A DNA stretch of 25,735 nt from the IMG/VR virus record IMGVR_UViG_3300037851_000519, positions 1-25,735 of that record. The stretch is one strand, 5' to 3'. The notes under the pieces are model-generated. The model was not told the origin of the DNA and did no database searches. It saw only the letters and a list, made by a program, of their open reading frames with translations. The first letter of the stretch is position 1. Each line of letters begins with the position of its first letter. Source of the DNA: a virus (lineage: Duplodnaviria > Caudoviricetes). This document shows, piece by piece, positions 2,928-20,406 of this stretch. The translations under genes were made by a program, and so were the position numbers.

Positions 2928-3326
2928 ATGAGCGTGAAAACTCAATTTCTTGCCACGCATCAGCAAAGCGACGGCGACGCCTTGCTGCCATATTTGAAAG
3001 AATACGATTATGGCGTTGCTGATCTGGTATCCGATAAGTACACAATTCCTGTTCCAGCCGGCTCGCTGATTTTGGGCGTGACGCATGTCGTTACCCAGGT
3101 CTGGAATGGCACAACGCCAGTTGTTGATGTTGGAGACGGAACTGACGCCGATGCGTTTATCGCTGCCGCATCAACGGCGACTCTCAATGCTGTTGCATCG
3201 TCTCTTGCTGGCGCTGCGGCCAATGCCGGAGGCTATTACTTTCCAGCGTCCGGAAAAATCGTTCTCACGCACACCACCGCGGCAACCACTGGTGCGTCGA
3301 AGGTGCTTGTGCAATATGCCTATTAA
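2928..3326 (+). CDS. Capsid cement/decoration-like small beta-sandwich protein
   Basis: ATG 2928 behind GGAGG (2914-2918), 132 aa. The pattern VPAGSLILGV..VTQVWN..VDVGDGTDADAFI..TTG..VLVQY resembles jelly-roll cement proteins (BPP-1 Bbp16-like); adjacent to the capsid gene. Confidence 0.6.
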   Translation: MSVKTQFLATHQQSDGDALLPYLKEYDYGVADLVSDKYTIPVPAGSLILGVTHVVTQVWNGTTPVVDVGDGTDADAFIAAASTATLNAVASSLAGAAANAGGYYFPASGKIVLTHTTAATTGASKVLVQYAY

Positions 3327-3348
3327 ATCCTGTTTTGGGGCAGGATTT
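3325..3348 (+). other. Short intergenic hairpin
   Basis: AAATCCTG (3325-3332) / CAGGATTT (3341-3348) with a TTTTGGGG loop. Weak terminator or mRNA-stability element. Confidence 0.4.
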
Positions 3349-3378
3349 TAATTTCCTACAGGGAGAAGGAGACTCACT

Positions 3379-4785
3379 ATGCCTGTATTTGAGCAGTATT
3401 ACGACTTAAACCCGATTGCGGTTATTGATCAGGACCAATGGGATTTTCGTTATCCCGAAGTCGCCCTGCTTTTCCGCAATTCGGCTGTATATACTCCCCT
3501 AATCGACTGGACGAATGATCCGGCCAAGTTGGGAGTCATGGGCACTATCGTTACCGAGTTGATCGAGGGCGATACCAATGCCGACGAAATTCCGTTCGAC
3601 GCGATGTATATCGATGCCCAGGGCGTTGATAGTCGATCGCGTACCTATAGCGTGAAACGCTATGGTGGAAAGGTTCAACTCAAGAAATACGAGAATCTTT
3701 TCACTCAGTGGCAAAAGGCTGGCGGGCGTGATTGGCGTCCCTTACTACGCGGCCTGCTCGGGCAGGACGTTTTACGCAAACACGAAATCCTGGCGCGCAA
3801 TATTTTCTTGCGCTCCCCGAAGGATCGCTGGACATACGGCGGCAACGCTACGAGCATTGGAACTATTGATAGTTCCGATATTTTCAATCTCGCATCTGTT
3901 CTGGATTGGAACTTCCGGCTTGGCAATACTGGTTCTCCGGTCATTCCTGGGGATGCTGCATCTGCGAAGGTCGCTATTGTCCCGCCTGGGATCGAGTATG
4001 ACATCCGCAAGGGCCTGGCGGCTGCGTCCGGCAACGAGGCCGCAATGTGGCGCGACGCGCGGCTGTATGCTGGCCAAACCTTGAACTACGAACTCGGCGA
4101 ATACTCCGGTGTACGTTTTATCAAGGCGCCGAATGATAAGTTTGGGATCAATCCTGCGGTTTTATACAACACCGGGGCGATCACCAAACAGTATGGCGTC
4201 TCAGAGCGCATCAATGCCGGTGACGGTTCTCCTGATCCCGAAACGACCAAAGTTGATGAAACCTGGTCAGTCGGGCAGAAGAATGTTACCCACTACATTC
4301 AGCTCGAAGATTTTGCTCAGAACGATTTCGCCTTGAATGATATCGTCACCATTCACACCCGGCGAACAAGCGCATATGGCGTTACCAATGGTGTCGATCC
4401 ACTCGATGGTACTGCTATCCATCGGCGTGTTGTTGCCGTGGATTACACCAACAATCGCCTTTCGTTTGATCGGCCTGTAATGTGGAGCTATCAAGTTCCG
4501 ATGGTTGCTACTCCTGTGTCCGGCGCGGCAGGTACGTACTACGCATTCGTGACTAAGGCCAAGGCAATCGGTATGGTTCTGGTGATGGGGTCACGTGGCG
4601 GCGTTTTGGGTGCGACTGCTGATCCGCTCAAGTTCTACGAGCCGAAACCAATCGATGACTTCGACAGCGTTTGGCGCTTCTCTTACGATATGGTTCTTGG
4701 CCATAACGTTTGGGAGCCAAACTATTTCGAGCTGCATTTCTGCGCCGTTTCTCAGCCAAAGCCTGGCGGGATCGTAGCGCCGTAG
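3379..4785 (+). CDS. Major capsid protein (HK97 fold, N4 gp56-like)
   Basis: AAGGAG RBS, 468 aa. AIVPPGIEYDIR...W...YA...YELGEYSGVRFIK matches the N4-gp56-family pattern; C-terminal PIDDFDSVWRFSY; follows the scaffold. Confidence 0.85.
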   Translation: MPVFEQYYDLNPIAVIDQDQWDFRYPEVALLFRNSAVYTPLIDWTNDPAKLGVMGTIVTELIEGDTNADEIPFDAMYIDAQGVDSRSRTYSVKRYGGKVQLKKYENLFTQWQKAGGRDWRPLLRGLLGQDVLRKHEILARNIFLRSPKDRWTYGGNATSIGTIDSSDIFNLASVLDWNFRLGNTGSPVIPGDAASAKVAIVPPGIEYDIRKGLAAASGNEAAMWRDARLYAGQTLNYELGEYSGVRFIKAPNDKFGINPAVLYNTGAITKQYGVSERINAGDGSPDPETTKVDETWSVGQKNVTHYIQLEDFAQNDFALNDIVTIHTRRTSAYGVTNGVDPLDGTAIHRRVVAVDYTNNRLSFDRPVMWSYQVPMVATPVSGAAGTYYAFVTKAKAIGMVLVMGSRGGVLGATADPLKFYEPKPIDDFDSVWRFSYDMVLGHNVWEPNYFELHFCAVSQPKPGGIVAP

Positions 4786-4859
4786 GATAGGGCAGCGTGA
4801 CTGATGGAAGTTTGGACGTTGTACTTGATAACGCCAATCTCGCGTCCTCTGGAGTAGGT

Positions 4860-5504
4860 ATGGCCACTCTGTCGAGTCTAAAAGAGAGACTAATACGGCT
4901 GCTTGGAGATACCATTGAGGCCGGTTCAAGTCCGCTCGGAGGCAAACTGTATAGTGCCGACCTCTTGGCTGACGGAATACGTGCCGGCCTCGATGCCATA
5001 CTTCAATATGTACCGGATATAAAAACAGTAGACTTTGTACAGATTGGTACTCAGAACTCCTATAGTCTGCCAGCCGATTTGTATCGCATAGAGGCGATAC
5101 AGAGCCTCGCTACAGGCGAGTATATTCAAGAACTAAATTTCTTTGAAGATCGGCTGGCAGACCTGCTCTGGCTGGATGCTCCAACGGGTTACGTCACCTT
5201 CTCTTACACATTGCCGACCAATGGCATAAGGATGTATTACTCCGCAAAATGGAGCTCTCCATCTGGCGACAACGATACGATTGCGTCGCCGGGTATCACG
5301 CATGTTGGGATACTTTTATATGCTGCAAGCTATTGCAAGTTACCGCGCGCTGGCCTGGCCTCTATGACTAGGCAATATCTGTCAAAAGAAATCGACAGTG
5401 GCACTCCAATCATGAATCCAGAAATGGATGCTAGCACATACTTCCTCAAGCGGTATGAGGACTATATGCGCCAGTTGCCCGCAATCAAAAAGGGGATGCG
5501 CTAA
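4860..5504 (+). CDS. Head-tail adaptor/connector protein
   Basis: ATG 4860 behind GGAG (4851-4854), 214 aa; the track start is GTG 4797. N-terminal MATLSSLKERLIRLLGD helix, YSLPADL motif and helical C-terminus are typical of adaptors; follows the capsid gene. Confidence 0.7.
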   Translation: MATLSSLKERLIRLLGDTIEAGSSPLGGKLYSADLLADGIRAGLDAILQYVPDIKTVDFVQIGTQNSYSLPADLYRIEAIQSLATGEYIQELNFFEDRLADLLWLDAPTGYVTFSYTLPTNGIRMYYSAKWSSPSGDNDTIASPGITHVGILLYAASYCKLPRAGLASMTRQYLSKEIDSGTPIMNPEMDASTYFLKRYEDYMRQLPAIKKGMR

Positions 5505-6068: not shown

Positions 6069-7163
6069 ATGGCTATTACTGCTCAAAGTGGCGCAATCGG
6101 TATGTCGATCAATGCAGGTGGAGCGAAGGACGGGGCTAATGCAAGCTGGCATCGCGTCCGCGCGCTTGCTACCGATATGTCAATCCTGGACGATACTCGT
6201 ATCGGCCCAGGTGAGATCGGTGGGATCGTTACTCCGACTATGCCCTACAAGGCCGGGTATTCGGTCGCCGGAGGCATGACTGTAATGCCACGGCTAAAAG
6301 AAACGTTTGGATGGTATTTGCTCGCCGCTCTTGGCGAGGATGCTGTCACCACTGGCAAGGATATCGATGATACTTCGGTGGTCGGACTTAACAAGCACGT
6401 TATGTCATTCAAGACAACGGATTCTGCATTTGTGCCGTATGTCAGTTTCCGCAAGCTGATCCCCAATCCGACAGCCGGAGATATTCTCGGTGAAATTTAC
6501 AAGAACTGCAAAATCCTTGGTCTTACTATGGATTTCCCTGGCGAAGGGCCTCTGCAATTCCGTATCGATGCTGCTGGCCTGGACTTTACGCTAGCCGAAA
6601 ATCCATCGTGGACCTGGGCCGCAGCTTACGAGGACTGGCAAAGTGTGCCGATCTCGTGCGTGACTGGCGGAACGGTCAAGGCCACTCCGCTTGGCGCCAG
6701 CGAGCAAACTCTGGATGTCGTTTCCGCGTCAGTGTCCCTGGTGAATGCCCCGCTTGATTTCAGGCAGGAGAAGAAATTCGGGTCTCCGTTACTGGATGGC
6801 ATCACCGTCGTCAATCGCGCCGTTACGTTCGATATGATCGTGAAGTGGAACAATCCCAATCTGTATCAGGAAATGCTGACCGGGGCGGCAGCCGGTACGG
6901 CGTGGACTGCATCGCCGTTTGTGGCAAAGGTTGAGATTACTGCTCTAACGAGCAAGTTGATCGGAACTGCTCCGCTGAACGTGCCCTGGAAAGTGCGTGT
7001 TTCGTGCCCCGAGGTCAATCTTGCGCAGGTTGGCGGGGTTGCATTGGTTGCTAGTCAGAGTTTGATGATGCGCGTGCGCGGCACTGCTATCGAACCGGGC
7101 TCCGGCTCGTATGCATCAGTTACTTTCCACAACGAGAAAGCAACGGCATACGCTATTCCGTAA
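6069..7163 (+). CDS. Major tail tube protein
   Basis: GGAGG RBS, 364 aa, beta-rich with tube-like segments (VAGGMTVMP, YKNCKILGLTMDF, RAVTFDMIVKW). Precedes the chaperone pair and TMP. Confidence 0.75.
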   Translation: MAITAQSGAIGMSINAGGAKDGANASWHRVRALATDMSILDDTRIGPGEIGGIVTPTMPYKAGYSVAGGMTVMPRLKETFGWYLLAALGEDAVTTGKDIDDTSVVGLNKHVMSFKTTDSAFVPYVSFRKLIPNPTAGDILGEIYKNCKILGLTMDFPGEGPLQFRIDAAGLDFTLAENPSWTWAAAYEDWQSVPISCVTGGTVKATPLGASEQTLDVVSASVSLVNAPLDFRQEKKFGSPLLDGITVVNRAVTFDMIVKWNNPNLYQEMLTGAAAGTAWTASPFVAKVEITALTSKLIGTAPLNVPWKVRVSCPEVNLAQVGGVALVASQSLMMRVRGTAIEPGSGSYASVTFHNEKATAYAIP

Positions 7164-7228: not shown

Positions 7229-7660
7229 ATGGCCAAACCATTCAAGCTAATTGCACCAATCGAGAAAACATTCGCTCTTACGCGTACGGATGAGCTATTT
7301 GACTCCGATGGAACCGTAGTTACTGTTCGTCAGGCGAGCCAGGCGCAACACGAATTGAGAGAAGCGATGTGGGACACTTTCGTTCGAGAGGAACGTACTG
7401 ACGACGAACTCCCGGATGGTGTTGCGGTCCGCTATGAGCAAAAGTTTTCGTTTCTTGAACTTATGCGAGTTGAGGCTCAGCTAACAGTTGTCGAGTCCAA
7501 CATCATGACGTTGGATGATAGCCAGTTATTCTGGCGCGGTATGAGCAAGGCTCAATTCGACAAAGCCTGGGGTCAACTACCTGCTGCTGTTTGCAGCGAA
7601 ATACACGCGAAGGTCCTGGAGGCCAACCCGGATTGGGCCCGCCCAAACCAGACGGCGTAG
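7229..7660 (+). CDS. Tail assembly chaperone (gpG-like)
   Basis: AGGAG RBS (7216-7220), 143 aa, acidic; sits between tube and TMP and ends at a slippery heptamer. Confidence 0.75.
   Translation: MAKPFKLIAPIEKTFALTRTDELFDSDGTVVTVRQASQAQHELREAMWDTFVREERTDDELPDGVAVRYEQKFSFLELMRVEAQLTVVESNIMTLDDSQLFWRGMSKAQFDKAWGQLPAAVCSEIHAKVLEANPDWARPNQTA
7642..7648 (+). promoter_or_regulatory. Programmed -1 ribosomal frameshift site C CCA AAC
   Basis: X XXY YYZ heptamer in the correct phase, 3 sense codons before the G stop. The -1 frame is open to 7989. Confidence 0.7.
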
Positions 7661-7989
7661 GGGGAGTAGATCGTGTAAATGTAAAAATTGACGGCCTCAA
7701 GGATGCTATTCGCGAATATCTGGGTGGCCTCAATGAGGTAAGAGCAGGTGGTAGGGCAAGTCAAATGCCGCCCAAGCCCGAGGCGATGATCCTATATGAA
7801 CAGTGTTTAAACATGCAAATTCCTATAGTACAAGGTGGTCTCCGCGATCAGCCGCATATCTGGTTATTGGAATGGCGGGTGATCCAGCAAGAGTTAGAGC
7901 TATGGGAAGCTGTTCATCGTAGGAACAATGAGGCCGTAAATGCCGCGCAAAGCCAAGAATTCACCAGCCCATTCACAAGTCCTTTCTAG
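7648..7989 (+). CDS. Tail assembly chaperone T segment (C-terminal part of a ~253-aa G-T frameshift product)
   Basis: Track ORF 7591-7989 lies in the -1 frame of G. It has no convincing own start or RBS near its 5' end and contains GGLRDQPHIWL, typical of pre-TMP proteins. Confidence 0.65.
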   Translation, partial: PDGVGGVDRVNVKIDGLKDAIREYLGGLNEVRAGGRASQMPPKPEAMILYEQCLNMQIPIVQGGLRDQPHIWLLEWRVIQQELELWEAVHRRNNEAVNAAQSQEFTSPFTSPF

Positions 7990-10900
7990 GAATCCATTCC
8001 GCATTGGTCCAAGAAATCAAGAGACCTTGTGGGATGAGATTAAAAACGCATTCGAGTTTGAAACTTCTGGCGCCGGAAGGAATATCGATGACTACGAGAT
8101 CGAGCATCTATATGACTCGTTAGAAAGCTTTACGCGCGTACGAGTACTCAATAAGATTTCCGGAAAGTCGCAGACCATTGATCTTCGCAGAGTTGGCGAG
8201 CGCAACGAAGAAACCGCGGCGCTTCAAATTGTACATCACGGCGACGCAACTCAGGGTGGCGGTATTCTGCCACAGATTGAGGCCGCATCCGATTTCGGCT
8301 GGAACAATCTTGCGTATTCATATGTTTCGCCAACGAGGGTTTTGTCTCGCGCGTTAGCAGCCAGCCTGGAAAAACGTGCGCCATCGTTTTATAAGATACT
8401 TGGCGAGGGATCCGAAAGGTACGGCGTGGCGAGCCACAAAGCAGCCGGAGACGAATCGATAGTCGCCGGTGGTCTTATTGGCGCGCTGTCGTATTCCGGA
8501 CAATCGCAAATCAATATGCTATATGGATCTGTCAATATTCAGATACCAGGAAGCGTCGGCGGCGAAAGAGTTTTAGGCGATATCAGGCAGGAACAGCGAT
8601 ACTTGCAATCGCTTGGGGTCTCGATGGAAAGCGGTATGCTGCGCGATTTTGGGGGAGCTGGCTATCAAATTAGAACAACGAGCGCAGTACCGCGCGCCCA
8701 ACGTACGGTATATGATCCACTAGTTGAAACGGACGCGGCCGGGATTCCCAGGATAACTGGCCTGGCGCATGCCTACACAAAATCCGGCGAGCCACTTCCA
8801 GCAAAAGCCTACAAACACGGTCAGGCTGCATTCGGTCCAAATAGAGAGGTTGCAATGCCGATGATTGGGTGGACGCCGGCGCAACCAAGCCCATTTGAGT
8901 TTGAACTGAAGAAGAGTAGAGGTGTCACGCGTGCCGATTATCCCTTCTATTCTCAATTGCGTGGCAGGTTTGAGCAGTGGGAGCAGCAAGAGATAAGAGA
9001 CGATAGCGGAAATATTATTCAGGATGCTGCCCCATTGCATAACGTCAAAGTGGGACTTCAGCTATTCCCCAATGCCGTACCATTTGAGTCTGGTTCCCAA
9101 AAGTTCGATCCGACAATGCGTAATATCGATAGTTTCGCTATCCAGCAACCAAGATACATGAGATTGCCAGGAATACAGACGATTGACGATCTGACATCAA
9201 TCCAGAATCTATCAATTGATGCCGGCAGGGTTATTGGTGCAGGGCATGGGTCGGCAATCATCGGCCAGTTGAATGGTTCGGATATTCGCATGGCTCGGAG
9301 AGCGCGCGAGCAAATGGTTGTTGGCGGAAGTGCATCCCTTGTAATCCCGCCATACATGAATCTTAATCCCCAAGAGGGAGAATCCCCATTTCTCGGAACT
9401 GCGCCGGATGTACTTCCTAGTGGCTCTACAATTAAAAGCACAGAGGAACTGGCTAGAAATCTGAGCGAAAGACTTGGAATGCCGGTTTATCGCCGCGAAG
9501 TAGATGCTGTTGGTTTGCGATTTGAGACATTATCCAAAACACAAGCTGCACTCAAATTCGCGGGGCTCAAGACATCCGAGTCGCCGGTAATATCGGGTTT
9601 GCCTATTATGGCAACGATCGGTGGGGAAAAAGTTAGAGTATCGGATGTCGGCTCCGAGATCAAGACCGCTCCACTGATGGTGTCGCAATCATTTATGATG
9701 TTCCCGCAGAGGATGAAAGCAAATTGGGCCGGTTTGCTTGGGTCTGATGAATTCACAAATTGGGTATCACGGGCCCCAGAAAATACAACGATTGACGAAT
9801 ACGCGCGTCAGTATTCTGGGTTTTCTGGAAAACGAACGAGCTGGCTCGAGATGGTTGGACAAATGTATCGCGGCGTGCTCCAACAGCCTGAGGGTCTTGA
9901 TACTCTAAAAAAGTACGGATATACACCAGTCAAGACTCCTCAGTGGGTTAATTGGGATCTCATGAGCGAGGGAGAGGTCGCCATTCATCGCAATGCTATG
10001 CGAGAGCAGGGCTATACGCAAGAGCAAATAGATCAGCGATTACGTTTTACGCCAGATCCCAAAAGACAGGGGATGTACCAGGCATCATTTTTTATGCAAT
10101 CCGGTTTGCTCGGTTTTGGCGCGCAGGACTATGTACCCGAGCTAGAGGGCTGGGGCATCATGAATTATCGTCAGGTAGCGGCCATGAAAACTTATTTTCC
10201 GGAAGCGTTTTCGTCCATATTTGCTGGGCGCCTGGCCACAAACGAATTGAGCGCGCCAGATAAACAGGGATGGAACGAACTCCTTAGTTGGTACTCGTGG
10301 GATCGCGAGTCTGTTACCGGGGAATATCCGATATTCGCCGGAAAAGATGTATCCACGTTGATCACAAGAGAAACTGCCGGAAAACTCAATTTCCTTACTC
10401 GGCATCCTGACCAGATTACCGGATTGAGCGAAGAAGAGGCGGCCAGGATCGCAGAGGTTGGAGCTGGCGGCCTTACAGAGCTGGAGAGAATGACTCTCTA
10501 TGACAAGGCGATAAAAACTGCCGCGCCAGATTACAAATCCGGGAATATGCTTTATTACGAAAGCTCGAATTTATATATACCTGGCCCACGATCAATCAGA
10601 TCGATTGACGAATTCAACGAAGCTGGCGAGTCCACCGGATATGCCTCAAAGTCGTGGCTATCCATGTTTGGAAAAGCAAATGTTGCGTCTGGACAAGGAC
10701 AATCAAATATCGATGTTCAGAAATCGGCCTACAGATTTCGCAAGATGATGGATAATCGATTGTCGGGAAAGAATATTGCCAAAAATGTATTCGGCTATGA
10801 TGCGCCTGGAATGATCTTTGAGCGTTATATCGGCATGGGCGCGCTAAAACCGAATGAAGTATTTCTCGGTGAGGGTACACTTCGCAGATCCATAGAGTCT

Positions 10901-13900
10901 CTGCCCGGAATAACAAGCAGCGGCACGCGCCGAATGATGCACAGCCTAACTGGTGGCGTGTCGCCAGAAGTTTTATACATGGCATCAAAATTCGCAGAGC
11001 GCGAGGATGCTGTCGGCGGTTTATCTAAAGCTCTAATCGATAAATATCCCAATCTTTATACTGGCGCTTCTGGCGCTAAGGGATCTGCTCGTGTAACCTA
11101 CGAGGACAGAGCAAGGAAAGATGCAGCGCGTTTCCTGTCAAAACAAGCAGCGCTGGCGAACGCATATATTCCATCGTTTTCGTTTAGACAGCCTGATACC
11201 AGCAGAGGAAGCGTTCTCCCAACGAGAACGATTACTGCTCATCAGTTGGCGGCAAGGGGTATTGATCCGAAAACATTTGCTGGCGTGAATACTGGCATTT
11301 CATCCTGGTTTTCCGCGATGGGCGTGGGCGATTGGGACAGAGATCCAATGCAGACGTTCTTCTCTGTTACCAGGAGCGGGAATAAATATACGCAACACCT
11401 TTCCCCGGAAGCCGCGCAGTGGAACGAGGAACTCGATGCGATGACCGCGAATTTCGCGGGTCGTCTTGGTCTGAAAGAGGCTGATGTATTCTCCGCTATG
11501 GAGGGAATGTTCGGAGATAAGGCGAATGATCTAAATATTGTTAGCGCAACCCTGAAAGGGTACATGGACGCTCAGGCTGGCGGGGCCCCTGCATACGAGA
11601 AGGGTCTTGTAATGGAACGAAGGCCATACAGCGAATTTGGCGATCTAAATACCATGTGGGGATCACAAAAACGTGATATGGGCTCTGTGTACAATATTCA
11701 GCGGCTCATTGAGTCTGCGGCTGGCTCTGTGGCAGCGTTTACCGGAGAGAATGAAAAGACATTTGTCGAGAATGTGTTCGATCCGAACCAGGCTGAATAC
11801 CAGGCTGCGCTTGACTTCTCTCGATATGGCAAGAACAATCCCCTATTTACAATGCTGACAACTGCCCGGTTTTTCCGCGAAGGTGGCGGCCAAGCGCCTA
11901 ACGCAAAACTGAATTTCGGCTTTTATTTTGACGATCCAACTAAATCCGGCAACTTTATTTCCGCGATGTCGAGTGGCCAATCTGATCCGTCCAACTTGGT
12001 CAATGCCATGATCGGGGAATTGGCGATAGACAAAAATGGCAAGCACTATATGAGCAATAGTGCGCTTGCGTCCCTGTTTTCGCCAAATATGGACGCATTC
12101 AGTAGAAATGTCCAGGCATTGGACGAGTTCGACAGACTGAAAGCCGCAAATGACCCGATGGTGGCTGGAATGTCGCGCGCTGGTGTATTGCGTGGCGATT
12201 TTATCGGTAAGCACGATGTTCTCGGAAACGTGAGTGTTTCCGAACGATCGATCGCTCCAATGGCGATTATGGCGACTGGCGTTGGCAAATCCTTGACGAG
12301 CTCGCATGAAAAGTATGCGACAACGCAGGCCGTTGCCGATGACATGGATTTTGGGGTAAGCTGGATGGGGTCGACTCAAACAATGTCGCAGATATTCAAT
12401 TCGCCAGAGGTATATCTGACGAATATGATCAATCGGTATCAGCGCAAAGAAAATCTAAAAATCCCACAATCCGAGAAAATCATGGCCATCTCGGCCATGC
12501 GTACACTGGCTGGAAGGATGAGGGGGACTGGAAATAAAAACGAGCCACTTACCGATGATGCATTAGCAAAAATGCCTATTGCAGTTCAGGAACTTGCGCG
12601 TTCTTACCGCCAAGGCATGGGCGATCAGGATTGGCTACGATATACTCAGGGAACACAAAATATTGATCAGCTGCTTGGCGAAGAACTTGCGTCAATGCGC
12701 GTGAAAGTGGCCGGGGCGCTGATGACCGGAGAACTTGGTACACCGATGAATGTCCGAACATCCGAATTGTCCGGTTATATCAGGGGTGATGCCAGATACA
12801 AGAATAACCCGCTCAAGAAAATGCAGTTGTCCAGAATGGGATACAACCGCGAGACAATCGAGTCGATGTATCCATTCAGGGGCGATGAGGGAAAGGCGAG
12901 GTCCGGAAATGAATTCGAGAGCCAGTTCGCCGCGGCCGCTCGCCAACTAACACTAAAGTCGAAAGCACAAGGCGCGCCGGCGTGGGGAGGCGGCACACGT
13001 TTTGCGCACGTTGGTAGTGGGGCTGGCGCAAACGCTGGCGGATATCTCGAGATGCCTGCTGGTGGCTCGACATATCGCGGGTTTAGGATGTCGATATCTC
13101 CGGATATTATAGGTTGGGATCCAGATGCGAAAAGATTTTATTGGGGAGAGGCAAAATATTCGCGAAGCTCGGATTACGTTGAACAGGGCAAACTTCAAAA
13201 TGCCTTATACGTAGCTGGCGCCACAAGAATGGCAAACGATCCCGGCAATTTCGATGCTATGCAACAGGCATTCTACAAGTATCTATCTGATGATCCGGTG
13301 GAATGGGCAGAAATGCACCAGGCGATAGCGGGAGGGCAAAACGCTGCATTTGCGGTAACTCCAACCGACAGCAGGATAACAGCCAACGAAGAGACAAGAG
13401 GCAAATTGAATAGCCTCCTGGCGCAAAAGCAGGAAATGCTTGCCAAAAATAGTGGCGCAGATACGGCGGAAATTGACGAAAAAATCTCTGCTATTGCCGG
13501 GAACCTTGATCGATTCGATATTGGTGACTACAAAGTCAGTTTATTTGATTACCAGAAAGTGCTTTCGGAAAACCAGAAGGCCATTGATACATTCGCTGCG
13601 GAGTCCTCAGATCCGCAAATCTTCGCCAGGAAAGTAATTGAGAGTGGAGTTTTCAAAGACCTGCGAAGAAATCGCATTTCAGATCGCGGCCTTAGAGCGT
13701 GGGCATACGAAACGCTTGGCACAAAAGACCCGGACGCGCCAACTGCGTCGGGTGTCAATATCGCCGGGCGCAGATTATCCGATGCCGAGCGCGAACGTGG
13801 TACATCTACACTAAAGGGCGCTCTTGCGGGCTACAGGAGAGCGTCTGGAATCGCCGGCCAGGATCGTGGAAGCGATTATACTGGCGGCGCGGGTGGCCCA

Positions 13901-16900
13901 CCTCCGCCTGGGGCTGCTTATACTGATGACGACGAGCAGCCAGGAGACAGACCTCCGGGCTCCGGTAGCACTCCCGAGGACTGGCAAAAATATCTATCTG
14001 GGATTTCCGGCGCTATAGAGCGTGGAATAAATAGGGGAATGGCCGGCGCAAAGGTAAATGCAGTAATTGATTTTGGCGGTGGCAACAAGCGGCCTGGCGA
14101 CTGGAAAATGGCTCGGGCCTTGGGCGTTGCAACCAAACTCGGGAATATAGTTCGTGGAACTGACAACCTAATGACGCTGCCAACCAGAATCGGTGGTGCT
14201 TTGGAGCAGTCGGGCTTGCTTGGATCCACGAAATTTAGCGATTATCCTGGTCTAAGCCAGGCCATGACCGTTGCTCTTGCGGCAGACCGCAGGAGATTTG
14301 CAGATGTTCTTTCCCCGTTCAGAAAAGAACTCAAGATGGCAAGCGGGCTAATGGTAGAGGGATCACAGGCGCTTGTCGGACCCGGTACAATGCAATCCTA
14401 TGGGCTCGATCTCGAGGATCCGGTTATTTCGCAGATTGCTAAAGGTCTGTTCGGTAATCCAGAAGAAAAAGGCGAATTCGGCAGATTCTTGAGAGAATCC
14501 GTAGAGGCTCAGGCTGCATATGGCGCGTCTATTGCTACTCCTGCCGAAGCAAACAGAGCAGAAAGACAGAGAGCAATATCAGCAGCATTCGCAACCAGGA
14601 TGGATAAGGGGTCTCTTGCTCAAATGGCTTCCGGACTAGCGGGCGCATATGGGATTTCGCTTACCCCATCGCAGAGCAGAGCAGATGTAATTAATACACT
14701 GGCTGGGGCGATAAAGGGCGATCCCCAAGAATTTATAAACTATCTTTCCGCAACCCCATCGATGCACGATTATTTCGGTGATCTACGAGCCACCGCAAAA
14801 AAACTCGGGGGTGATTATAGCCAATTCACGGCCAATGCGTCTGCGGGACCACAATATGGCCCAGAATATGGTGCGTTTGCAGAGGCGTTAGCCGGCATAG
14901 ACGATACCGATTATGGAAAGATCAAATACGATTTTATGGCTGTGCAGGAGGATATGCTTGCCAGAAATAGATGGGCGCGACAGGTTGGAAGGACATCCGG
15001 AATATTCGCCGCTGGCGCGCGTGGATCGGCGACGAGTTTCGATGCTACATCGCGCCAGGCGGCTATAAGCTCTCTCGACGACGATATAGCCAAGATGCAA
15101 GAGCAAATGGAGAAACTTGCATCGGGACTCGATTCGGGTATAAGAGGAGTGACAAAGGATCTTGGGCTTGCAATCGCCGAATTAGGCAAAGTAACATCAG
15201 CATATCAAGCTGACGCGATGCCTTCCGACACAGCCGTATTGACAGCCGGTATTCTCACTGACATTATCGGTAAACACGGTTCAATAGCCGAGGCGAAATT
15301 CAAAAGAGCCGCGCTCGAGGCAAGGACTGGCCCTGCGCACGGCGACACCAGAGATGCGGCGAACGACTACTTCCTGGCAAATGCCGAGGCTCAGCAGGCT
15401 CGCGAGGCATACGCAAAGATACCATCGCACTATCCAATGTCCGCAAGGCAAAGAGCGGCAGAGCGACGTATGTCTACTGCGCTCGATGAGGGTATTGCTC
15501 ATACCAGACTATCAATGAGACTGGCGCGTACCGCGCTTGCTGGCGAATTGGGAGAGGGCGACGAAAGTATAATCCCCGAAAGCCCTGGGGCATTACAGGC
15601 TTATGCTGCAACAAAGACGGGTCTTAGCCGGGAACAGATTGCGGAATTCGCAAAATACAAGGCAACCGTTGATGCACACGATACCGCTAAATCAGCAAAG
15701 CTCGAATATGATACTTCCAGAGTGGCCGCTCCCTGGCAGGGCGAACAGAATAAGCAGGCGCTTACGAGATTAGGCGACTTCAACGATAAGATCAAACAGT
15801 TGGGAGACACGCTCGAACACGGCACTCGATATAGTGGACGCTTTGCCCGTGATATGGCAGAACTGACCGAGGCCATAGCGCGCGACGATCTGCGGGATGT
15901 TGTCAATAAGATCGGAAGGGCAACGGGTATTGATCCGACCGATAAGACACCTGAACAAATGCAAGACATAATTTCCGGGAGGATGAGTAGGCTTAGCGCG
16001 CGCATGAGTCGCCGATGGACGCCAGAACGACAATCCGAGTTTGATGCTCTTGAATCGTATCAGCGCCAACTTGGAGTAGAACAACAAAAATATGGATTGG
16101 CGCAAAACGCACTTCAGTATCAGTCGGAAGATTATGGCATGGGCGGCTTTTTCCGTCGAGCATTTGGCGGTTTTGGTTTATTATATATGCGCGGAATTGC
16201 CAGCAATATTTTCGGCGGATTGAGAACTGGACGCGAGGAACGGCTACAGCAAGAACAGCAAATATATTCGGCAATTGCGCCTGCATTTGGAGGTGTCGAG
16301 TATATCGCGCCAGAACAAAGAGCAGCTATGGCGCGCGGTCTCTATGGCGGATCGTTCTCGGCTTGGACGTCTAATATTAGCGCGAATATTATGCAAAGAT
16401 ATCCTGGCATGAATGCAGCGGCAAATGTTGCACAGGCTGGAATATTCGGTTTTGCTGGCGCTTCCTGGCTGGCATCTTTATCGCCTGCGTTGGCCGGTAT
16501 CGCTGGCGGCACTTTGCCGTTTGCTGGCGTTGCAGCCGGAATAGCCGCTGCGGGAACTTACGGGATGGGGATTTACAGCGCATATAGCGATGTTGAGGGT
16601 ACGGCCGTTGGTATGGCATCCAGATATTTGCCGACCGGGCTGACGGCCCAAGAGAGATATACGAGTGCGGCTAGGCAAGGAGGCGGTTTTGGTCCATATT
16701 GGTCTGAATTCGTAGTAGCTCCTCAGGGTATTGCGTGGCTCGGTAGTGATAGCCAAAGAGAAACCACTTCTAATATCGAGCAAATGATTGATATTATGCA
16801 GAAGGGTGGCGTTAGTCCCGCAGAGGCAGCACGAAAGGTACTCGGAATTGGAGCGCATCGCAACGAGATCGAAAAATATGTAATGATGTATACCAGAGCA

Positions 16901-19900
16901 ACGCGCATAAACAGCGAATCCGGAGTAGACATAGAGACCGCCGCCAAAGCGGTTGGATTGGGAGCCAAATACGGTATACCTGAATATTCGTGGCATCCAA
17001 CAGCGGCGAGTGGTCTATCAATACGAAGTGACGTATACGCTCCGCTCGGGGCTGCACTTCAAGCCGGAATCAATGTCGAGGGTCTAGCACTTGGCGTTGG
17101 CCAAGCTGCCGGATGGTCGCCTATTCAGTCTCAGGCAAATGTTTCAGCGATTGTCACAAACATGATGACGAGTTTCGGTGGAGTATTGGGGGCGCAAATG
17201 ACATCGGCGCAAGCTGATATTCTTCAAGCGGCTACACAGCGATACGCTCAACTTGGCCCGTATGCCGGAATGCCCGGATCGTCATCGGAAGAACAACTTG
17301 CTGCTCTAAGAAAGTTGCAACAATTTGGTGCTCTTGGCAGCAAGCAATGGGATATTTATCAAAGAGAATGGACTAAAAAGCAACAGGAGCATCTCGAATT
17401 TGGCAAAATAATGCCAACGGCAGACGAATTGCTTGACGAATTAAGCGGAAAACCTTGGTGGGCATCCGGGAGTGGAGCCGGCGAGGATATGGGCACAACT
17501 GCGTATACAGCACAGTTGCGTCAGTACGCGGAATGGGAAAGGAAATTCGGAGCCAAATCAAAGATAAAAGAGGTTCTTATCCAGGCGGGATTCGAGGGTG
17601 ACGATGCCCGCAGAATAGTTGGCGGTCTAGGCGAATTCACTCAGGGTAGAGCCCAGGATTTGTTACAACGATTGTCGGCTGTCGATAATATTCGGGAGTC
17701 GCTTGTTTCTGGACGATGGAAGTCGCAAGAAGAGGCGCGCGAGATAGCGAAAGGTATGCTCAGGGATACTCTCGAGGAGTACAGGCGCGATAGAGATAGA
17801 CCGAGCATGCAAGAAGAACAACGCGCACTTAGAACTCCCGACCAGTGGAATCCGCAGCAACTTGCCATTCAGGCCGCAGCTCTGCGCTTCGACCAGGGTG
17901 CGCTTGCGTATGCCAATGCTAACCAAATGAACTTGGCCGGTATGGGGCAAGTCCCATTCTATCTGGTTGGCCAGGAAGTTGGTCAGTTCGGGCCATTTCA
18001 GAATCGGGTGACTGGACAGCCATTGTTCTCTACAACAATGCAGTGGGGTCGGCCTGGTGGCACAACCGATCTTGGCGGGATCAAAGGCGCGCCAACTGGC
18101 CTTACGGCAGAACAAGTAGCGGCAATTCTTTACGGGACAAAGAACTGGCAGCAGCAAGGGCCGCTTGGCGGCAGATTGATCCAGGGAATGGTGCAAGGTG
18201 TAGACATTGGTATACAGGGAATTCCGCAAATTGGCGGTTTGATGGCTGCACAGTTTATGATGGCCCAGGCAAGCTATCAAAACCAAATGGCGTCCATTGG
18301 CAACTCGATGGCGCAACTGAATTTACAGTACGCGTTCCAGACCGGTGTTGGGCTTGATAAATACTCCGGTATCGTCAATCCGCAAACCGGAGTGCCGTTT
18401 GGGGTAAGCTCAAAGGGCTATGGATGGAATATACCTGGCATCGGCAGCTATAAAAGTACGGGGGGAGGCTTCTGGGGGCTCGAGGACGCAAGTCGGGCGC
18501 TTGGCTATGCCCAACAGGAATGGCAATTTGGGCAACAAGAAAAACAAATGCAAATGCAAGAGCGATTCTTCAACCAGAATATGGGATTGCAGACTCGTCA
18601 GGCGCAGATGCAACGCAACTGGACGCAACAGGATTGGGCATTCCAGTCTCAGGTACGTGGACTTGAGTGGCAGTGGAAACAAGAGGATTTTCAAGAAGAA
18701 GTCCGTTTCATGACCGGGCGCGAGCGAAAGAAGGCGGAACGCGGCATGGAGCGCGAGACCATCATGTATGGTCTCGAGGGCGAGCAAATTGATAAGCAGA
18801 AAAAGCGTCAGCAAGAGCTATGGAAGCTCGAGGATGAGCGGTTTACAATCCAGCGCCAGCAGCATCAAGAAACGATGCAGTTCCAGCGAGAGCAGCTTGC
18901 CACGCAAATAGCATTCTTCCAAGAGCGTAAAAAGATTGAGGATGAGCAGGTTAAGCTACAGCGCGCGCAGTGGACCGAGCAAATGAAACTTCAGCGCGAG
19001 GCCCTTGGTATTCAGGCTAAACAAGCAAAAGACCAGAAAGATTACCAGGATTTGCAACTTAAGATCCAGACTTTGCAAGTGGCAATAAATACTGGCATTG
19101 GCGACAGCCAGGTTCTTAGCGATGAATTATGGAAAACGATACAGAAATGGCTCAAGGATCTTGGTATTATGGCCGGGAATTTACCGACTGGCGGGGGCGG
19201 TGGCAGTGGCGGGTGTTTTATCGCTGGAACCCCGATCGCTACACCGGCCGGGAATGTTTTGATCGAGGATATATCAGTTGGCGATCAAGTATACAGCTAC
19301 GATGAGAACAATAGAGAAATAACTATTGGACTTGTTGATCATATACTTAGGTCGTCATCGAACAGTGTATACGATGTTAGTATCGGTGGTCAGACATTCC
19401 GGTGCACATGGAATCACCCCTGGCTAACAACGCGTGGATGGGTCAAGGCAAAATATCTGGCTCCTGGCGATACCGTACTCACCATGAACGGCTCTGATAT
19501 ATCCGAAACGGAAGTGGAAAGCTCGGTTAGCGTAGATGGGAGTTTCCCTATTTACAACTTTGAGGTTGCGGTTACCCACACATACTTTGCCGACCAGTAT
19601 GTCGTTCACAATATACAGCAAAAAACGTCTACGAGTGGTGGTGGCAGCGGGACCATTACTGCGCCACCGGGCAGTCCCGCCAGTGGCGGCATATTCAACG
19701 GGCGCGCGTTGTCATTCGCGTCCGGTGGTTTTACTGTCCCGCCTGGATACCCAAATGATCTGTTCCAGCTTTGGGCATCATCCGGAGAGCGCGTTACTGT
19801 TACCCCGAGATGGGCTAATGCAGCTGTATCTACAAAGGAATTACAAAATCCGTGGAATAGTTCGTTGATGCTAAACAACAATGGCGTAGGTGGGGGCAAC

Positions 19901-19987
19901 GGAAATGTAACCATCGTATTGAATGTTGGCGATCAGCATCTTGGCAAATATGTTCTAAATACTATAAATCAGGAGATTAGTCTATGA
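7940..19987 (+). CDS. Giant tape measure polyprotein (4015 aa): putative virion RNA polymerase + PD-(D/E)xK nuclease + tape measure + Hint domain
   Basis: TMP position after G/GT; GAGG RBS (7930-7933). Gly/Ala hydrophobic segments (~16140-16585), Gln-rich helical region (~18510-19080) and TMP C-terminal motif FASGG..PGYPND..SSGERV (19715-19795). Enzyme motifs are listed separately. Confidence 0.85.
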   Translation: MPRKAKNSPAHSQVLSRNPFRIGPRNQETLWDEIKNAFEFETSGAGRNIDDYEIEHLYDSLESFTRVRVLNKISGKSQTIDLRRVGERNEETAALQIVHHGDATQGGGILPQIEAASDFGWNNLAYSYVSPTRVLSRALAASLEKRAPSFYKILGEGSERYGVASHKAAGDESIVAGGLIGALSYSGQSQINMLYGSVNIQIPGSVGGERVLGDIRQEQRYLQSLGVSMESGMLRDFGGAGYQIRTTSAVPRAQRTVYDPLVETDAAGIPRITGLAHAYTKSGEPLPAKAYKHGQAAFGPNREVAMPMIGWTPAQPSPFEFELKKSRGVTRADYPFYSQLRGRFEQWEQQEIRDDSGNIIQDAAPLHNVKVGLQLFPNAVPFESGSQKFDPTMRNIDSFAIQQPRYMRLPGIQTIDDLTSIQNLSIDAGRVIGAGHGSAIIGQLNGSDIRMARRAREQMVVGGSASLVIPPYMNLNPQEGESPFLGTAPDVLPSGSTIKSTEELARNLSERLGMPVYRREVDAVGLRFETLSKTQAALKFAGLKTSESPVISGLPIMATIGGEKVRVSDVGSEIKTAPLMVSQSFMMFPQRMKANWAGLLGSDEFTNWVSRAPENTTIDEYARQYSGFSGKRTSWLEMVGQMYRGVLQQPEGLDTLKKYGYTPVKTPQWVNWDLMSEGEVAIHRNAMREQGYTQEQIDQRLRFTPDPKRQGMYQASFFMQSGLLGFGAQDYVPELEGWGIMNYRQVAAMKTYFPEAFSSIFAGRLATNELSAPDKQGWNELLSWYSWDRESVTGEYPIFAGKDVSTLITRETAGKLNFLTRHPDQITGLSEEEAARIAEVGAGGLTELERMTLYDKAIKTAAPDYKSGNMLYYESSNLYIPGPRSIRSIDEFNEAGESTGYASKSWLSMFGKANVASGQGQSNIDVQKSAYRFRKMMDNRLSGKNIAKNVFGYDAPGMIFERYIGMGALKPNEVFLGEGTLRRSIESLPGITSSGTRRMMHSLTGGVSPEVLYMASKFAEREDAVGGLSKALIDKYPNLYTGASGAKGSARVTYEDRARKDAARFLSKQAALANAYIPSFSFRQPDTSRGSVLPTRTITAHQLAARGIDPKTFAGVNTGISSWFSAMGVGDWDRDPMQTFFSVTRSGNKYTQHLSPEAAQWNEELDAMTANFAGRLGLKEADVFSAMEGMFGDKANDLNIVSATLKGYMDAQAGGAPAYEKGLVMERRPYSEFGDLNTMWGSQKRDMGSVYNIQRLIESAAGSVAAFTGENEKTFVENVFDPNQAEYQAALDFSRYGKNNPLFTMLTTARFFREGGGQAPNAKLNFGFYFDDPTKSGNFISAMSSGQSDPSNLVNAMIGELAIDKNGKHYMSNSALASLFSPNMDAFSRNVQALDEFDRLKAANDPMVAGMSRAGVLRGDFIGKHDVLGNVSVSERSIAPMAIMATGVGKSLTSSHEKYATTQAVADDMDFGVSWMGSTQTMSQIFNSPEVYLTNMINRYQRKENLKIPQSEKIMAISAMRTLAGRMRGTGNKNEPLTDDALAKMPIAVQELARSYRQGMGDQDWLRYTQGTQNIDQLLGEELASMRVKVAGALMTGELGTPMNVRTSELSGYIRGDARYKNNPLKKMQLSRMGYNRETIESMYPFRGDEGKARSGNEFESQFAAAARQLTLKSKAQGAPAWGGGTRFAHVGSGAGANAGGYLEMPAGGSTYRGFRMSISPDIIGWDPDAKRFYWGEAKYSRSSDYVEQGKLQNALYVAGATRMANDPGNFDAMQQAFYKYLSDDPVEWAEMHQAIAGGQNAAFAVTPTDSRITANEETRGKLNSLLAQKQEMLAKNSGADTAEIDEKISAIAGNLDRFDIGDYKVSLFDYQKVLSENQKAIDTFAAESSDPQIFARKVIESGVFKDLRRNRISDRGLRAWAYETLGTKDPDAPTASGVNIAGRRLSDAERERGTSTLKGALAGYRRASGIAGQDRGSDYTGGAGGPPPPGAAYTDDDEQPGDRPPGSGSTPEDWQKYLSGISGAIERGINRGMAGAKVNAVIDFGGGNKRPGDWKMARALGVATKLGNIVRGTDNLMTLPTRIGGALEQSGLLGSTKFSDYPGLSQAMTVALAADRRRFADVLSPFRKELKMASGLMVEGSQALVGPGTMQSYGLDLEDPVISQIAKGLFGNPEEKGEFGRFLRESVEAQAAYGASIATPAEANRAERQRAISAAFATRMDKGSLAQMASGLAGAYGISLTPSQSRADVINTLAGAIKGDPQEFINYLSATPSMHDYFGDLRATAKKLGGDYSQFTANASAGPQYGPEYGAFAEALAGIDDTDYGKIKYDFMAVQEDMLARNRWARQVGRTSGIFAAGARGSATSFDATSRQAAISSLDDDIAKMQEQMEKLASGLDSGIRGVTKDLGLAIAELGKVTSAYQADAMPSDTAVLTAGILTDIIGKHGSIAEAKFKRAALEARTGPAHGDTRDAANDYFLANAEAQQAREAYAKIPSHYPMSARQRAAERRMSTALDEGIAHTRLSMRLARTALAGELGEGDESIIPESPGALQAYAATKTGLSREQIAEFAKYKATVDAHDTAKSAKLEYDTSRVAAPWQGEQNKQALTRLGDFNDKIKQLGDTLEHGTRYSGRFARDMAELTEAIARDDLRDVVNKIGRATGIDPTDKTPEQMQDIISGRMSRLSARMSRRWTPERQSEFDALESYQRQLGVEQQKYGLAQNALQYQSEDYGMGGFFRRAFGGFGLLYMRGIASNIFGGLRTGREERLQQEQQIYSAIAPAFGGVEYIAPEQRAAMARGLYGGSFSAWTSNISANIMQRYPGMNAAANVAQAGIFGFAGASWLASLSPALAGIAGGTLPFAGVAAGIAAAGTYGMGIYSAYSDVEGTAVGMASRYLPTGLTAQERYTSAARQGGGFGPYWSEFVVAPQGIAWLGSDSQRETTSNIEQMIDIMQKGGVSPAEAARKVLGIGAHRNEIEKYVMMYTRATRINSESGVDIETAAKAVGLGAKYGIPEYSWHPTAASGLSIRSDVYAPLGAALQAGINVEGLALGVGQAAGWSPIQSQANVSAIVTNMMTSFGGVLGAQMTSAQADILQAATQRYAQLGPYAGMPGSSSEEQLAALRKLQQFGALGSKQWDIYQREWTKKQQEHLEFGKIMPTADELLDELSGKPWWASGSGAGEDMGTTAYTAQLRQYAEWERKFGAKSKIKEVLIQAGFEGDDARRIVGGLGEFTQGRAQDLLQRLSAVDNIRESLVSGRWKSQEEAREIAKGMLRDTLEEYRRDRDRPSMQEEQRALRTPDQWNPQQLAIQAAALRFDQGALAYANANQMNLAGMGQVPFYLVGQEVGQFGPFQNRVTGQPLFSTTMQWGRPGGTTDLGGIKGAPTGLTAEQVAAILYGTKNWQQQGPLGGRLIQGMVQGVDIGIQGIPQIGGLMAAQFMMAQASYQNQMASIGNSMAQLNLQYAFQTGVGLDKYSGIVNPQTGVPFGVSSKGYGWNIPGIGSYKSTGGGFWGLEDASRALGYAQQEWQFGQQEKQMQMQERFFNQNMGLQTRQAQMQRNWTQQDWAFQSQVRGLEWQWKQEDFQEEVRFMTGRERKKAERGMERETIMYGLEGEQIDKQKKRQQELWKLEDERFTIQRQQHQETMQFQREQLATQIAFFQERKKIEDEQVKLQRAQWTEQMKLQREALGIQAKQAKDQKDYQDLQLKIQTLQVAINTGIGDSQVLSDELWKTIQKWLKDLGIMAGNLPTGGGGGSGGCFIAGTPIATPAGNVLIEDISVGDQVYSYDENNREITIGLVDHILRSSSNSVYDVSIGGQTFRCTWNHPWLTTRGWVKAKYLAPGDTVLTMNGSDISETEVESSVSVDGSFPIYNFEVAVTHTYFADQYVVHNIQQKTSTSGGGSGTITAPPGSPASGGIFNGRALSFASGGFTVPPGYPNDLFQLWASSGERVTVTPRWANAAVSTKELQNPWNSSLMLNNNGVGGGNGNVTIVLNVGDQHLGKYVLNTINQEISL
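9554..11830 (+). other. Two-barrel (DPBB) RNA polymerase domain within the TMP (motif-bounded)
   Basis: Ordered motifs: KFAGLK (aa 539-544, weak), RLSGKNIAKNVFG (aa 940-952), LKPNEVFL (aa 969-976), RQP (aa 1083-1085), GDWDRDPM (D1131/D1133/D1135), MGSVYN (aa 1247-1252), QAALDFSRYG (aa 1288-1297). Confidence 0.75.
12752..13210 (+). other. PD-(D/E)xK nuclease domain within the TMP (RecB/Cas4/lambda-exonuclease-like)
   Basis: VRTSEL (aa 1605-1610), GNEFE (aa 1656-1660), SPD (D1722), EAK (aa 1737-1739) and QNALY (aa 1753-1757, QxxxY) occur in canonical order. Confidence 0.7.
19214..19612 (+). other. Hint (intein-like) domain, 133 aa, no homing endonuclease
   Basis: CFIAGTPI (C3759), IEDISVGDQV, block B TWNHPW, YNFEV..THTYFA..VVHN (N3891). 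The +1 residue is Ile. Flanked by Gly/Ser linkers. Confidence 0.92.
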
Positions 19988-20406
19988 CGCAATACGATTA
20001 TATTGTCTTGTCGTCGAGCGACAATTCGATTACCGGCAAATTCACTGTTATTCAGGAAGGATACAATCCTTCTCTTGAGGCAATCCAGAATGTTTCCGAT
20101 ACGATCGATGGCGGCGTCGATGTACAGGTTGGTCCAATAGTCGAGATTAGAGGTATGCTAATCAAGTGCCGTCACACAGAGGATCGCGTTGGCTATGGGA
20201 CACTCGCCACTCTCGAGTCGTTATTCCGTCTCAGAAATCCGAAGGGAACGCCGAGCAACATTATTACTTATACTGATAACCTGGGCTCGCAGTATCAGGT
20301 TATATTCATTGACAACTGGCAACAAGCTCTATTAGCCCACCAAGTCGAGGGGCTATATGCCTGGTCGCTGATCAAGATTACATTGAGGATATTGGCGGCT
20401 ATATGA
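19984..20406 (+). CDS. Distal tail (Dit)-like protein
   Basis: 140 aa, beta-rich, ATGA-coupled directly after the TMP. Positional assignment. Confidence 0.55.
   Translation: MTQYDYIVLSSSDNSITGKFTVIQEGYNPSLEAIQNVSDTIDGGVDVQVGPIVEIRGMLIKCRHTEDRVGYGTLATLESLFRLRNPKGTPSNIITYTDNLGSQYQVIFIDNWQQALLAHQVEGLYAWSLIKITLRILAAI

Follow-up and report, generated by a model that had tools for sequence, protein, structure and literature searches.

The closest described system is gp96 of phage P23-45, a tail protein for which RNA polymerase (RNAP) activity, presence in the virion and structure have been shown, and which has homologues in P74-26, G20c and TSP4 (PMC10770324; PDB 8H2M, 8H2N). Fragments of gp96 extend RNA, the protein is full-length in virions, chromatin immunoprecipitation sequencing (ChIP-seq) finds it on pre-early genes, and close relatives of these hot-spring Thermus phages are without the polymerase fusion (PMC10770324). 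Here we analyzed the complete IMG/VR record IMGVR_UViG_3300037851_000519 (25,735 bases, in the following called the window), which covers about 30% of a phage genome and holds a single structural operon on the plus strand. Its open reading frame (ORF) 7940-19987 encodes a protein of 4,015 residues, whose identical sequence is present in two sources, JGI/IMG and Logan. We read this protein as a tape measure with an active, injected two-barrel RNAP and assign this reading a probability of roughly 0.82.

Polymerase motifs and their conservation

A previous annotation made from the letters of the window alone (the sequence-only reading) had proposed seven polymerase motifs, and all seven were recovered in one frame of the ORF and in the proposed order:

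Residues 539-544, plus strand, starting at nucleotide 9554: KFAGLK
Residues 940-952, plus strand: RLSGKNIAKNVFG
Residues 969-976, plus strand: LKPNEVFL
Residues 1082-1086, plus strand: FRQPD, with R1083-x-P1085 at nucleotides 11186-11194
Residues 1130-1137, plus strand: GDWDRDPM, with the Asp triad at nucleotides 11330-11344
Residues 1247-1252, plus strand: MGSVYN
Residues 1288-1297, plus strand, ending at nucleotide 11830: QAALDFSRYG

The spacing was also given correctly, as D1131 lies 48 residues past R1083, and D1131/D1133/D1135 is the only DxDxD in the 4,015 residues. With R1083-Q-P1085 followed by D1131-W-D1133-R-D1135, the protein passes the motif filter of PMC10770324 Supplementary Data 4, [RK]xP-x20-100-DxDxD. 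The G-DxDxD form arises in 1.6% of 2,000 shuffles of the window protein. In this protein alone the motif pattern is weak evidence; it is far beyond chance because it is kept across the family.

The family was assembled in two ways. A search of 1.84 billion proteins with residues 301-1400 returned five long homologues (30-36% identity) and one short fragment, and further loci were collected via the tube and capsid genes and not via the motif, one such set being 80 of 100 matches. A tube gene is present at 150 loci; behind it, 77 of them show an ORF of at least 850 residues, and DxDxD is found in 74 of these. The remaining three ORFs (L055 and L153, on one contig, and L161) stop ahead of the catalytic barrel; in the assembly containing L161, the catalytic-barrel half is found on a separate contig with GDLDRDP. 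Dereplication left 43 proteins including the query, and the RxP..DxDxD pattern is present in 41 of them, as compared to 7% of 4,300 shuffles, and missing in L082 and L139. In six proteins with two DxDxD, the site was picked by eye.

Our alignment A6 comprises 44 rows (the 43 nonredundant proteins and P0015) with a median pairwise identity of 16%; P0013, P0016, P0017, L055 and L023 stand outside it, and the alternative alignments A7 and A8 looked gappier. Conservation of the Asp triad in homologues, a check that the sequence-only reading had proposed itself, was found in 44 of 44 rows for each of D1131, D1133 and D1135, a count that partly reflects anchoring, as the rows were cut around the motif. 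R1083 (42/44), P1085 (43/44) and G1130 (41/44) accompany the triad. The two lysines of KFAGLK, which had been put forward as a weak parallel, turned out to be well conserved (K544 in 40/44; K539 as lysine in 26 and arginine in 8, together 34/44), and K575 joins them (lysine in 39, arginine in 3, together 42/44). Since these lysines lie about 590 residues upstream, their conservation is free of the motif anchoring.

Other parallels held in part. The motif at residues 940-952 is present, but its R940 and SGK (in RLSGK) vary across the 44 rows, and the conserved residues nearby are K948 (31/44) and R962 (30/44), neither of which had been named. The likeness of QAALDFSRYG to aVDf.KtG is restricted to Y1287-Q1288-x-x-L1291-D1292 (Q1288 in 34/44, D1292 in 37/44), and the lysine is not kept. 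In MGSVYN, Y1251 and N1252 are found in 31/44 and 30/44 rows. The DxDxD loops vary among relatives (DWDRD, DFDYD, DKDYD and others). One tape measure ORF (L075:2376-6116) breaks off within the bridge helix after 1,247 residues; the DNA behind it, close to the end of the contig, is AT-rich, and a chimera or an insertion is a possible cause.

Predicted two-barrel fold

The following parts were assigned to the polymerase region, all on the plus strand:

9032..11824, plus: predicted single-chain two-barrel RNAP, residues ~365-1295 (AlphaFold2 model and structure matches)
9032..10141, plus: beta-type double-psi beta-barrel (DPBB) region, DPBB-B, residues ~365-734, with K539/K544/K575; approximate bounds
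10142..10789, plus: inter-barrel connector, residues ~735-950, ~215 residues (from blocks of model confidence)
10790..11434, plus: catalytic barrel DPBB-A, residues ~951-1165, with R962, R1083-x-P1085 and G1130-D1131-W-D1133-R-D1135
11627..11812, plus: predicted bridge helix 1230-1268 (MGSVYN) and trigger-loop-like helix 1272-1291 (YQxxLD)

Residues 330-1345 were modelled template-free by AlphaFold2 with alignment A6, giving a mean predicted local distance difference test (pLDDT) of 79.1 and a predicted TM score (pTM) of 0.75; a single-sequence AlphaFold run on residues 901-1340 reached a pLDDT of 34. Foldseek matched the model to 48 PDB chains at E<=0.001, and among the matches listed, all are RNAP subunits. 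By VIA comparison, QDE-1 and RDR2 scored Z 9.8-10.2 (root mean square deviation (rmsd) 3.7-4.2, 224-260 residues), with QDE-1 as the best match (Z 10.2, rmsd 4.2, 260 residues aligned, model positions 37-941). In an unbiased search of 48,161 chains, two-barrel RNAPs took all of ranks 1-17, among them QDE-1 (Z 10.0), P74-26 gp62 (Z 7.7) and P23-45 gp96 (Z 6.1 and 5.8), and the ranks below went mostly to isolated double-psi barrels. The absence of phi14:2 gp66 among the fold matches listed excludes nothing.

Double-psi barrels, whose presence in a model the sequence-only reading had named as a check, are found there: QDE-1, RDR2, gp62 and gp96 align model positions 36-38 to 859-941, and they do so as one body through barrel A, with the second barrel facing the first. 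Each Z is moderate, and the case for the fold is made by the uniformity of the match list together with the agreement of the Asp triad with the barrel. We have very little doubt that residues ~365-1295 would fold as a single-chain two-barrel RNAP, as the model predicts. The earlier proposal of such an enzyme is supported in its fold, by the model and the conserved triad, but not in its start, as the predicted domain begins near residue 365 (nucleotide 9032), about 520 bases upstream of the proposed nucleotide 9554.

For the beta-type barrel, the plastid RNAP chain 8qma_A (653-954) aligns to model positions 39-405 with a moderate score (Z 4.8). The connector is predicted to be mostly ordered (pLDDT mostly 70-95) and aligns in part with N-terminal clamp segments of Rpb1/beta', with weak matches at Z 6-8 (2pmz_A 10-499 on model 464-872; AR9 7s00_d 3-401 on 463-860). 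At the catalytic barrel, Rpb1 343-530 superposes on model 622-863 with an rmsd of 2.5-3.5, and isolated DPBB proteins (designed ones and CDC48) align to 628-833. Residues 343-808 of E. coli beta' match model positions 622-940, and the predicted bridge helix (residues 1230-1268) is covered up to beta' 808 and QDE-1 1170. The model helices 901-939 and 943-962 correspond to the predicted bridge and trigger-like helices, the latter of lower confidence (pLDDT 52-64).

Sequence searches for further members were mostly silent: word-index protein searches with the RNAP region, pattern scans with a single RNAP or tube sequence, and a search of GTDB genomes with the tube profile gave nothing, and tblastn of the capsid and RNAP against 50,697 cultured phages gave no match. 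The best Atlas result for the RNAP region (0.78) pointed to unnamed viral clusters. Among predicted viral structures, the top BFVD matches were A0A8S5SD80 ("minor tail protein", Siphoviridae sp. ctnpt50, E 4e-9) and A0A075BUT7 of Microcystis phage MaMV-DC (E 6e-8), which have 8-10% identity to the window protein and are possibly further tail-associated two-barrel enzymes.

Probable tape measure gene, passenger domains and relatives

The genes and further domains of the window to which we refer below are:

590-2188, plus: portal
3379-4785, plus: head protein
4797-5504, plus: adaptor
6069..7163, plus: tail tube protein (Phage_tube_2, E 2.8e-7)
7229..7989, plus: tail assembly chaperone pair of G/GT type, two small ORFs overlapping in the -1 frame
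7940..19987, plus: tape measure protein ORF of 4,015 residues with RNAP, nuclease-like domain, helical tape region and Hint domain (synteny and composition)
12857..13309, plus: PD-(D/E)xK nuclease-like domain, residues ~1640-1790, with G1656/E1660, P1721-D1722, E1737-x-K1739 and Q1753..Y1757
18437..19159, plus: Gln/Glu-rich, tape-like region with spaced Trp/Phe (family-wide conservation)
19214..19612, plus: Hint domain, C3759...H3890-N3891, then Ile (PT-HINT, E 5.6e-11)
19984..20406, plus: 140-residue gene at the distal-tail position (position only)

We regard ORF 7940-19987 as the likely tape measure gene of a phage with a long tail, because it follows the tube and the chaperones, contains a Gln/Glu-rich region, and has no alternative candidate ORF. 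As in siphophages, the ORF is the longest tail gene and comes after the tube gene and two chaperone frames linked by a presumed frameshift; a sheath gene was not seen in the tail module of the window. A G/GT chaperone pattern typically precedes tape measure genes. Between the two chaperone frames of the window, an in-phase -1 slip site, C CCA AAC, is located at 7642-7648, and the two-frame arrangement is also present in all seven relatives inspected, from which we infer -1 frameshifting. The Gln/Glu-rich region matches all 11 other full-length members, its aromatic periodicity being weak (11/18), and Gly/Pro-rich linkers come after the enzyme domains. In the complete relatives, the tail module has no other long ORF able to be the ruler. 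The 140-residue gene behind the tape measure has no family match in Pfam or PHROGs, and larger tail genes lie downstream of it.

The first chaperone of the relatives ends with ...GE-stop over a G-rich run. In the window (7642-7669), a TAG stands before GGGGAG and the canonical CCCAAAC site lies just upstream, which suggests that the slip site has moved. Recoding of the TAG, prompted by its position before GGGGAG, was rejected because the in-phase CCCAAAC site adjoins it upstream and because translation table 11 leaves every long gene open.

The sequence-only reading had named neither of the two other domains of the chain. Residues ~1640-1790 likely represent a PD-(D/E)xK nuclease, as the motif set E ... 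PD ... (D/E)xK ... QxxxY of these enzymes is present. An iterative search found the domain in 14 of 46 sequences, 11 of them strong, and some of the other 32 end too early to tell; all 11 aligned rows share G, P, D and K. Pfam PDDEXK_1 matches two of these 11 (best E 5.5e-6), the window's own domain not being among them, and the Atlas leads all have the restriction endonuclease (REase) fold at 0.84-0.87, below the reliable threshold. A PDB profile search with the domain gave no match. In two other members, nuclease or nuclease-like domains occur elsewhere in the tape measure: a PD-(D/E)xK-like domain is N-terminal, not after the polymerase, in L165:15004-15498, and a DEDDh exonuclease (Pfam RNase_T, E 1e-8) lies inside the polymerase region of L094:7272-16436 (residues 1016-1122).

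The Hint domain is found at the matching site in three of 12 full-length members. Of the residues needed for intein splicing, C3759 and H3890-N3891 are present, but the +1 position is Ile (Leu in G010). By intein chemistry, the domain should therefore cleave and not splice, and it is likely cleavage-only. The Hint domain of the G009 tape measure (residues ~3225-3370) ends with His-Asn-Ser and could be capable of splicing.

The long relatives have genomes of 83-91 kb, three of them with terminal repeats. A second polymerase-sized ORF with the motif was not found in five of the six (G006, G007, G009, G010, rated only 53% complete, and G012). The sixth, G008, has a 771-residue ORF with RNP...DYDGD (C1:63458-65770, minus strand; L194:3458-5770), a candidate for a second, non-virion single-chain RNAP that has no PHROG, PDB sequence or family-profile match. 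Because of this candidate, we rejected the absence of a second polymerase as a rule for the family. Serine integrase genes are present in G006 and G008, and G011 has been assigned to the proviruses. In a Leptolinea assembly, a 67-kb contig carries one member that continues into what look like host genes (e.g. for a NAD-dependent ligase); Leptolinea accounts for four of eight genome matches, and a Chloroflexota assembly is the source of P0015, a close homologue. These hints to a Chloroflexota host come from relatives, not from the window phage, and binning can mislead.

The six long relatives also contain genome-specific palindromes of 12-15 bp, scattered in coding and intergenic DNA (L175-L200, L206-L210): CCTCCA-N3-TGGAGG 27 times in G006, TTGGGA-N2-TCCCAA 22 times in G008, TCCTA-N-TAGGA 22 times in G007, TTCGCA-N-TGCGAA 15 times in G012, TTCCAATTGGAA 13 times in G009, and TCCAA-N-TTGGA nine times in G010. 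These counts of 9-27 compare with a Markov-control maximum of 1-4. The window has no clear counterpart, its best candidate, chosen post hoc, having six matches (<=2 mismatches) at 1.96 expected. As further side aspects, a cluster of tRNA-like GAGTTCGAATCT elements is found at G007:C1:3000-5800, and in L002/G012 (G012 ~45000-47147), L013 and L067 two ORFs take the place of one major capsid gene, possibly due to introns or assembly errors.

Proposed role, alternatives and comparison with known systems

We propose that the polymerase would be injected with the tail contents and transcribe the first phage genes without the host polymerase. From established RNAP chemistry, D1131/D1133/D1135 would coordinate the catalytic Mg, contacts to RNA and nucleoside triphosphates would come from R1083 and from the lysines in barrel B, and the bridge and trigger helices would drive translocation. 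In analogy to gp96, the G/GT chaperones would pack the chain in the tail, the chain would leave on infection, its C-terminal part would form the envelope channel, and the N-terminal polymerase would fold where the DNA enters the cytoplasm. With less weight, the Hint domain may remove the C-terminal ~124 residues in a maturation step encoded in the chain itself, and in part of the family the PD-(D/E)xK domain may be a nuclease that is injected as well.

Several observations weigh against this proposal. On the side of the ruler, Pfam and PHROG scans gave no tape-measure family match for the 4,015-residue ORF, and a single weakly hydrophobic stretch was found in it (residues 2850-2868, Kyte-Doolittle value 1.58). 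On the side of the enzyme, Pfam, PHROGs and a phmmer search of PDB, together with three profiles, gave no sequence match to a known RNAP for the protein or its profiles; Foldseek TM scores by query are 0.11-0.14, with 190-280 of 1,016 residues aligned; structural scores are moderate, with the best Z at about 10; and hhalign of A6 against gp96 327-1124 gave a probability of 0.15 and E 0.4 (hmmsearch -0.7 bits), gp96 being compared as a single sequence, so that very remote kinship is not excluded. The loose [RK]xP-x20-100-DxDxD pattern arises in 12% of the 2,000 shuffles, DWDRD differs from DFDGD, L082 has a decayed upstream motif without RxP, and L077 has G-E-P where R-x-P is expected and passes the pattern only via another Arg. 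The bulky, ordered connector would be harder to pass through the tail tube unless unfolded. With respect to early transcription, no conserved asymmetric phage promoter was found in the six relatives, whose top repeated words are palindromes, and G010 shows host-type TGTGGTATAAT sites (-10), both among the matches listed; the window itself contains no early region.

The missing phage promoter and the host-type sites fit an alternative that survives best but that we still regard as unlikely, namely that the catalytic two-barrel domain is mainly a transcription-driven motor that pulls the genome in, or a maker of short RNA primers, with the host polymerase expressing the early genes. Tethering at the entry channel would suit DNA pulling, which has also been proposed as coupled to transcription (PMC10770324). 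The full catalytic set and the bridge and trigger helices are kept, however, and gp96 was found on pre-early genes by ChIP-seq; the two roles are compatible with each other.

More improbable is a polymerase that is released from the tape measure by cleavage, during assembly or ahead of it, to act as a free, non-virion enzyme on middle or late genes. A single enzyme could serve later stages in the five long relatives in which no second polymerase was found, and the Gly/Pro-rich linkers behind the enzyme domains would be in place for such a cut. Yet at every locus the gene belongs to the late structural operon, where an enzyme that is needed earlier would be badly placed; the Hint domain is C-terminal and not behind the polymerase, and gp96 stays full-length in virions.

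We consider it very improbable that the protein belongs with the ejection or internal virion proteins, as gp66 of crAss-like phages does, and is not a tail-length ruler. The missing tape-measure family match is in line with this idea, as are the best fold matches of QDE-1 type, a group that includes phi14:2 gp66 (PMC10770324), but the ORF lies right behind the tube and the G/GT pair, and the complete relatives offer no other ruler candidate in their tail module. A dead or repurposed barrel scaffold, or a chance occurrence of motifs, is hardly credible: the frequency of the loose motif in shuffles and the missing sequence match to known RNAPs would allow it, but the Asp triad is invariant at 16% median identity and the fold was reached without templates.

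With the injected polymerase in the tape measure as the preferred reading, the fusion would be constant across no fewer than 43 strongly divergent phage lineages and, for this reason, not a curiosity. Tentatively, and with somewhat more doubt than confidence, we picture a family of Chloroflexota phages, widespread, uncultured, in part temperate and with genomes of 83-91 kb, in which the tape measure is a multi-enzyme injection cassette. It would combine an independently acquired, clamp-bearing RNAP, usually the only one of the phage, with an exchangeable nuclease (of PD-(D/E)xK type here and of DEDDh type in a relative) and with a Hint domain whose self-cleavage takes over the role of a protease in maturing the tail ruler. 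The family would also supply compact single-chain RNAPs that differ in their DxDxD loops. Besides gp96, they would be a second case in which to study the passage of a ~900-residue enzyme through the tail tube and its refolding, the compatibility of a clamp-like element with this passage, and whether transcription drives genome entry. From P23-45 (5,002 residues, 800 nm, i.e. 0.16 nm per residue), we predict a tail of ~640 nm if the whole chain is extended and of ~310 nm if the enzymes lie outside the tube.

In the literature, of which few subscription papers were covered, only PMC10770324 proved relevant, and the searches returned no account of the window family, of a nuclease-RNAP tape measure or of Chloroflexota hosts. 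A supplementary list of that paper, which is restricted to two-polymerase viruses, has no Chloroflexota or Anaerolineae entry, and the family could be among the 23 profiles of the paper; the passages of PMC10684548 that were covered describe no such fusion.

Structurally, the best match is to QDE-1 and RDR2 (PDB 2J7N, 7Y7P, 7W82), including both barrels and the bridge helix. Unlike the window protein, these are eukaryotic RNA-interference polymerases and not virion proteins, with ~10% identity. The aVDf.KtG motif of QDE-1-type enzymes includes a lysine that is not conserved in the window family. P74-26 gp62, the counterpart of P23-45 gp64 (PDB 8F5M), also aligns with both barrels (Z 7.7, rmsd 4.4, 192 residues), but these are free-standing proteins of ~600 residues that are absent from virions (PMC10770324). 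With cellular beta'/Rpb1 and the phiKZ/AR9 RNAPs, the window protein shares the catalytic barrel (rmsd 2.5-3.5, ~105-118 residues, reaching the bridge helix), whereas in these multi-subunit enzymes the two barrels are not joined in one chain within a tail protein.

In its overall plan, the window protein is most similar to gp96 (PMC10770324): in each, a single-chain two-barrel RNAP, predicted in the case of the window protein, occupies the N-terminal part of a giant tape measure, with barrel B before barrel A and a similar AGLK stretch in barrel B, and the model aligns with gp96 at Z 6.1 (rmsd 5.3, 188 residues). As no sequence link to gp96 was detected, the window fusion is probably a separate lineage; the tube and capsid profiles of the window family likewise give no match in P23-45. 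P23-45 has a companion non-virion RNAP, for which no candidate was found in five of the six long relatives. The catalytic site is DWDRD here and DFDGD in gp96. The connector of ~215 residues is predicted to be mostly ordered, in contrast to 67 disordered residues (613-679) in gp96, a flat enzyme without a clamp (PMC10770324). As passengers, the window protein carries nuclease-like and Hint domains, and the gp96 protein a metallopeptidase. The architecture as such has therefore already been published for gp96, and it is by site, connector and passenger domains that the window family differs.

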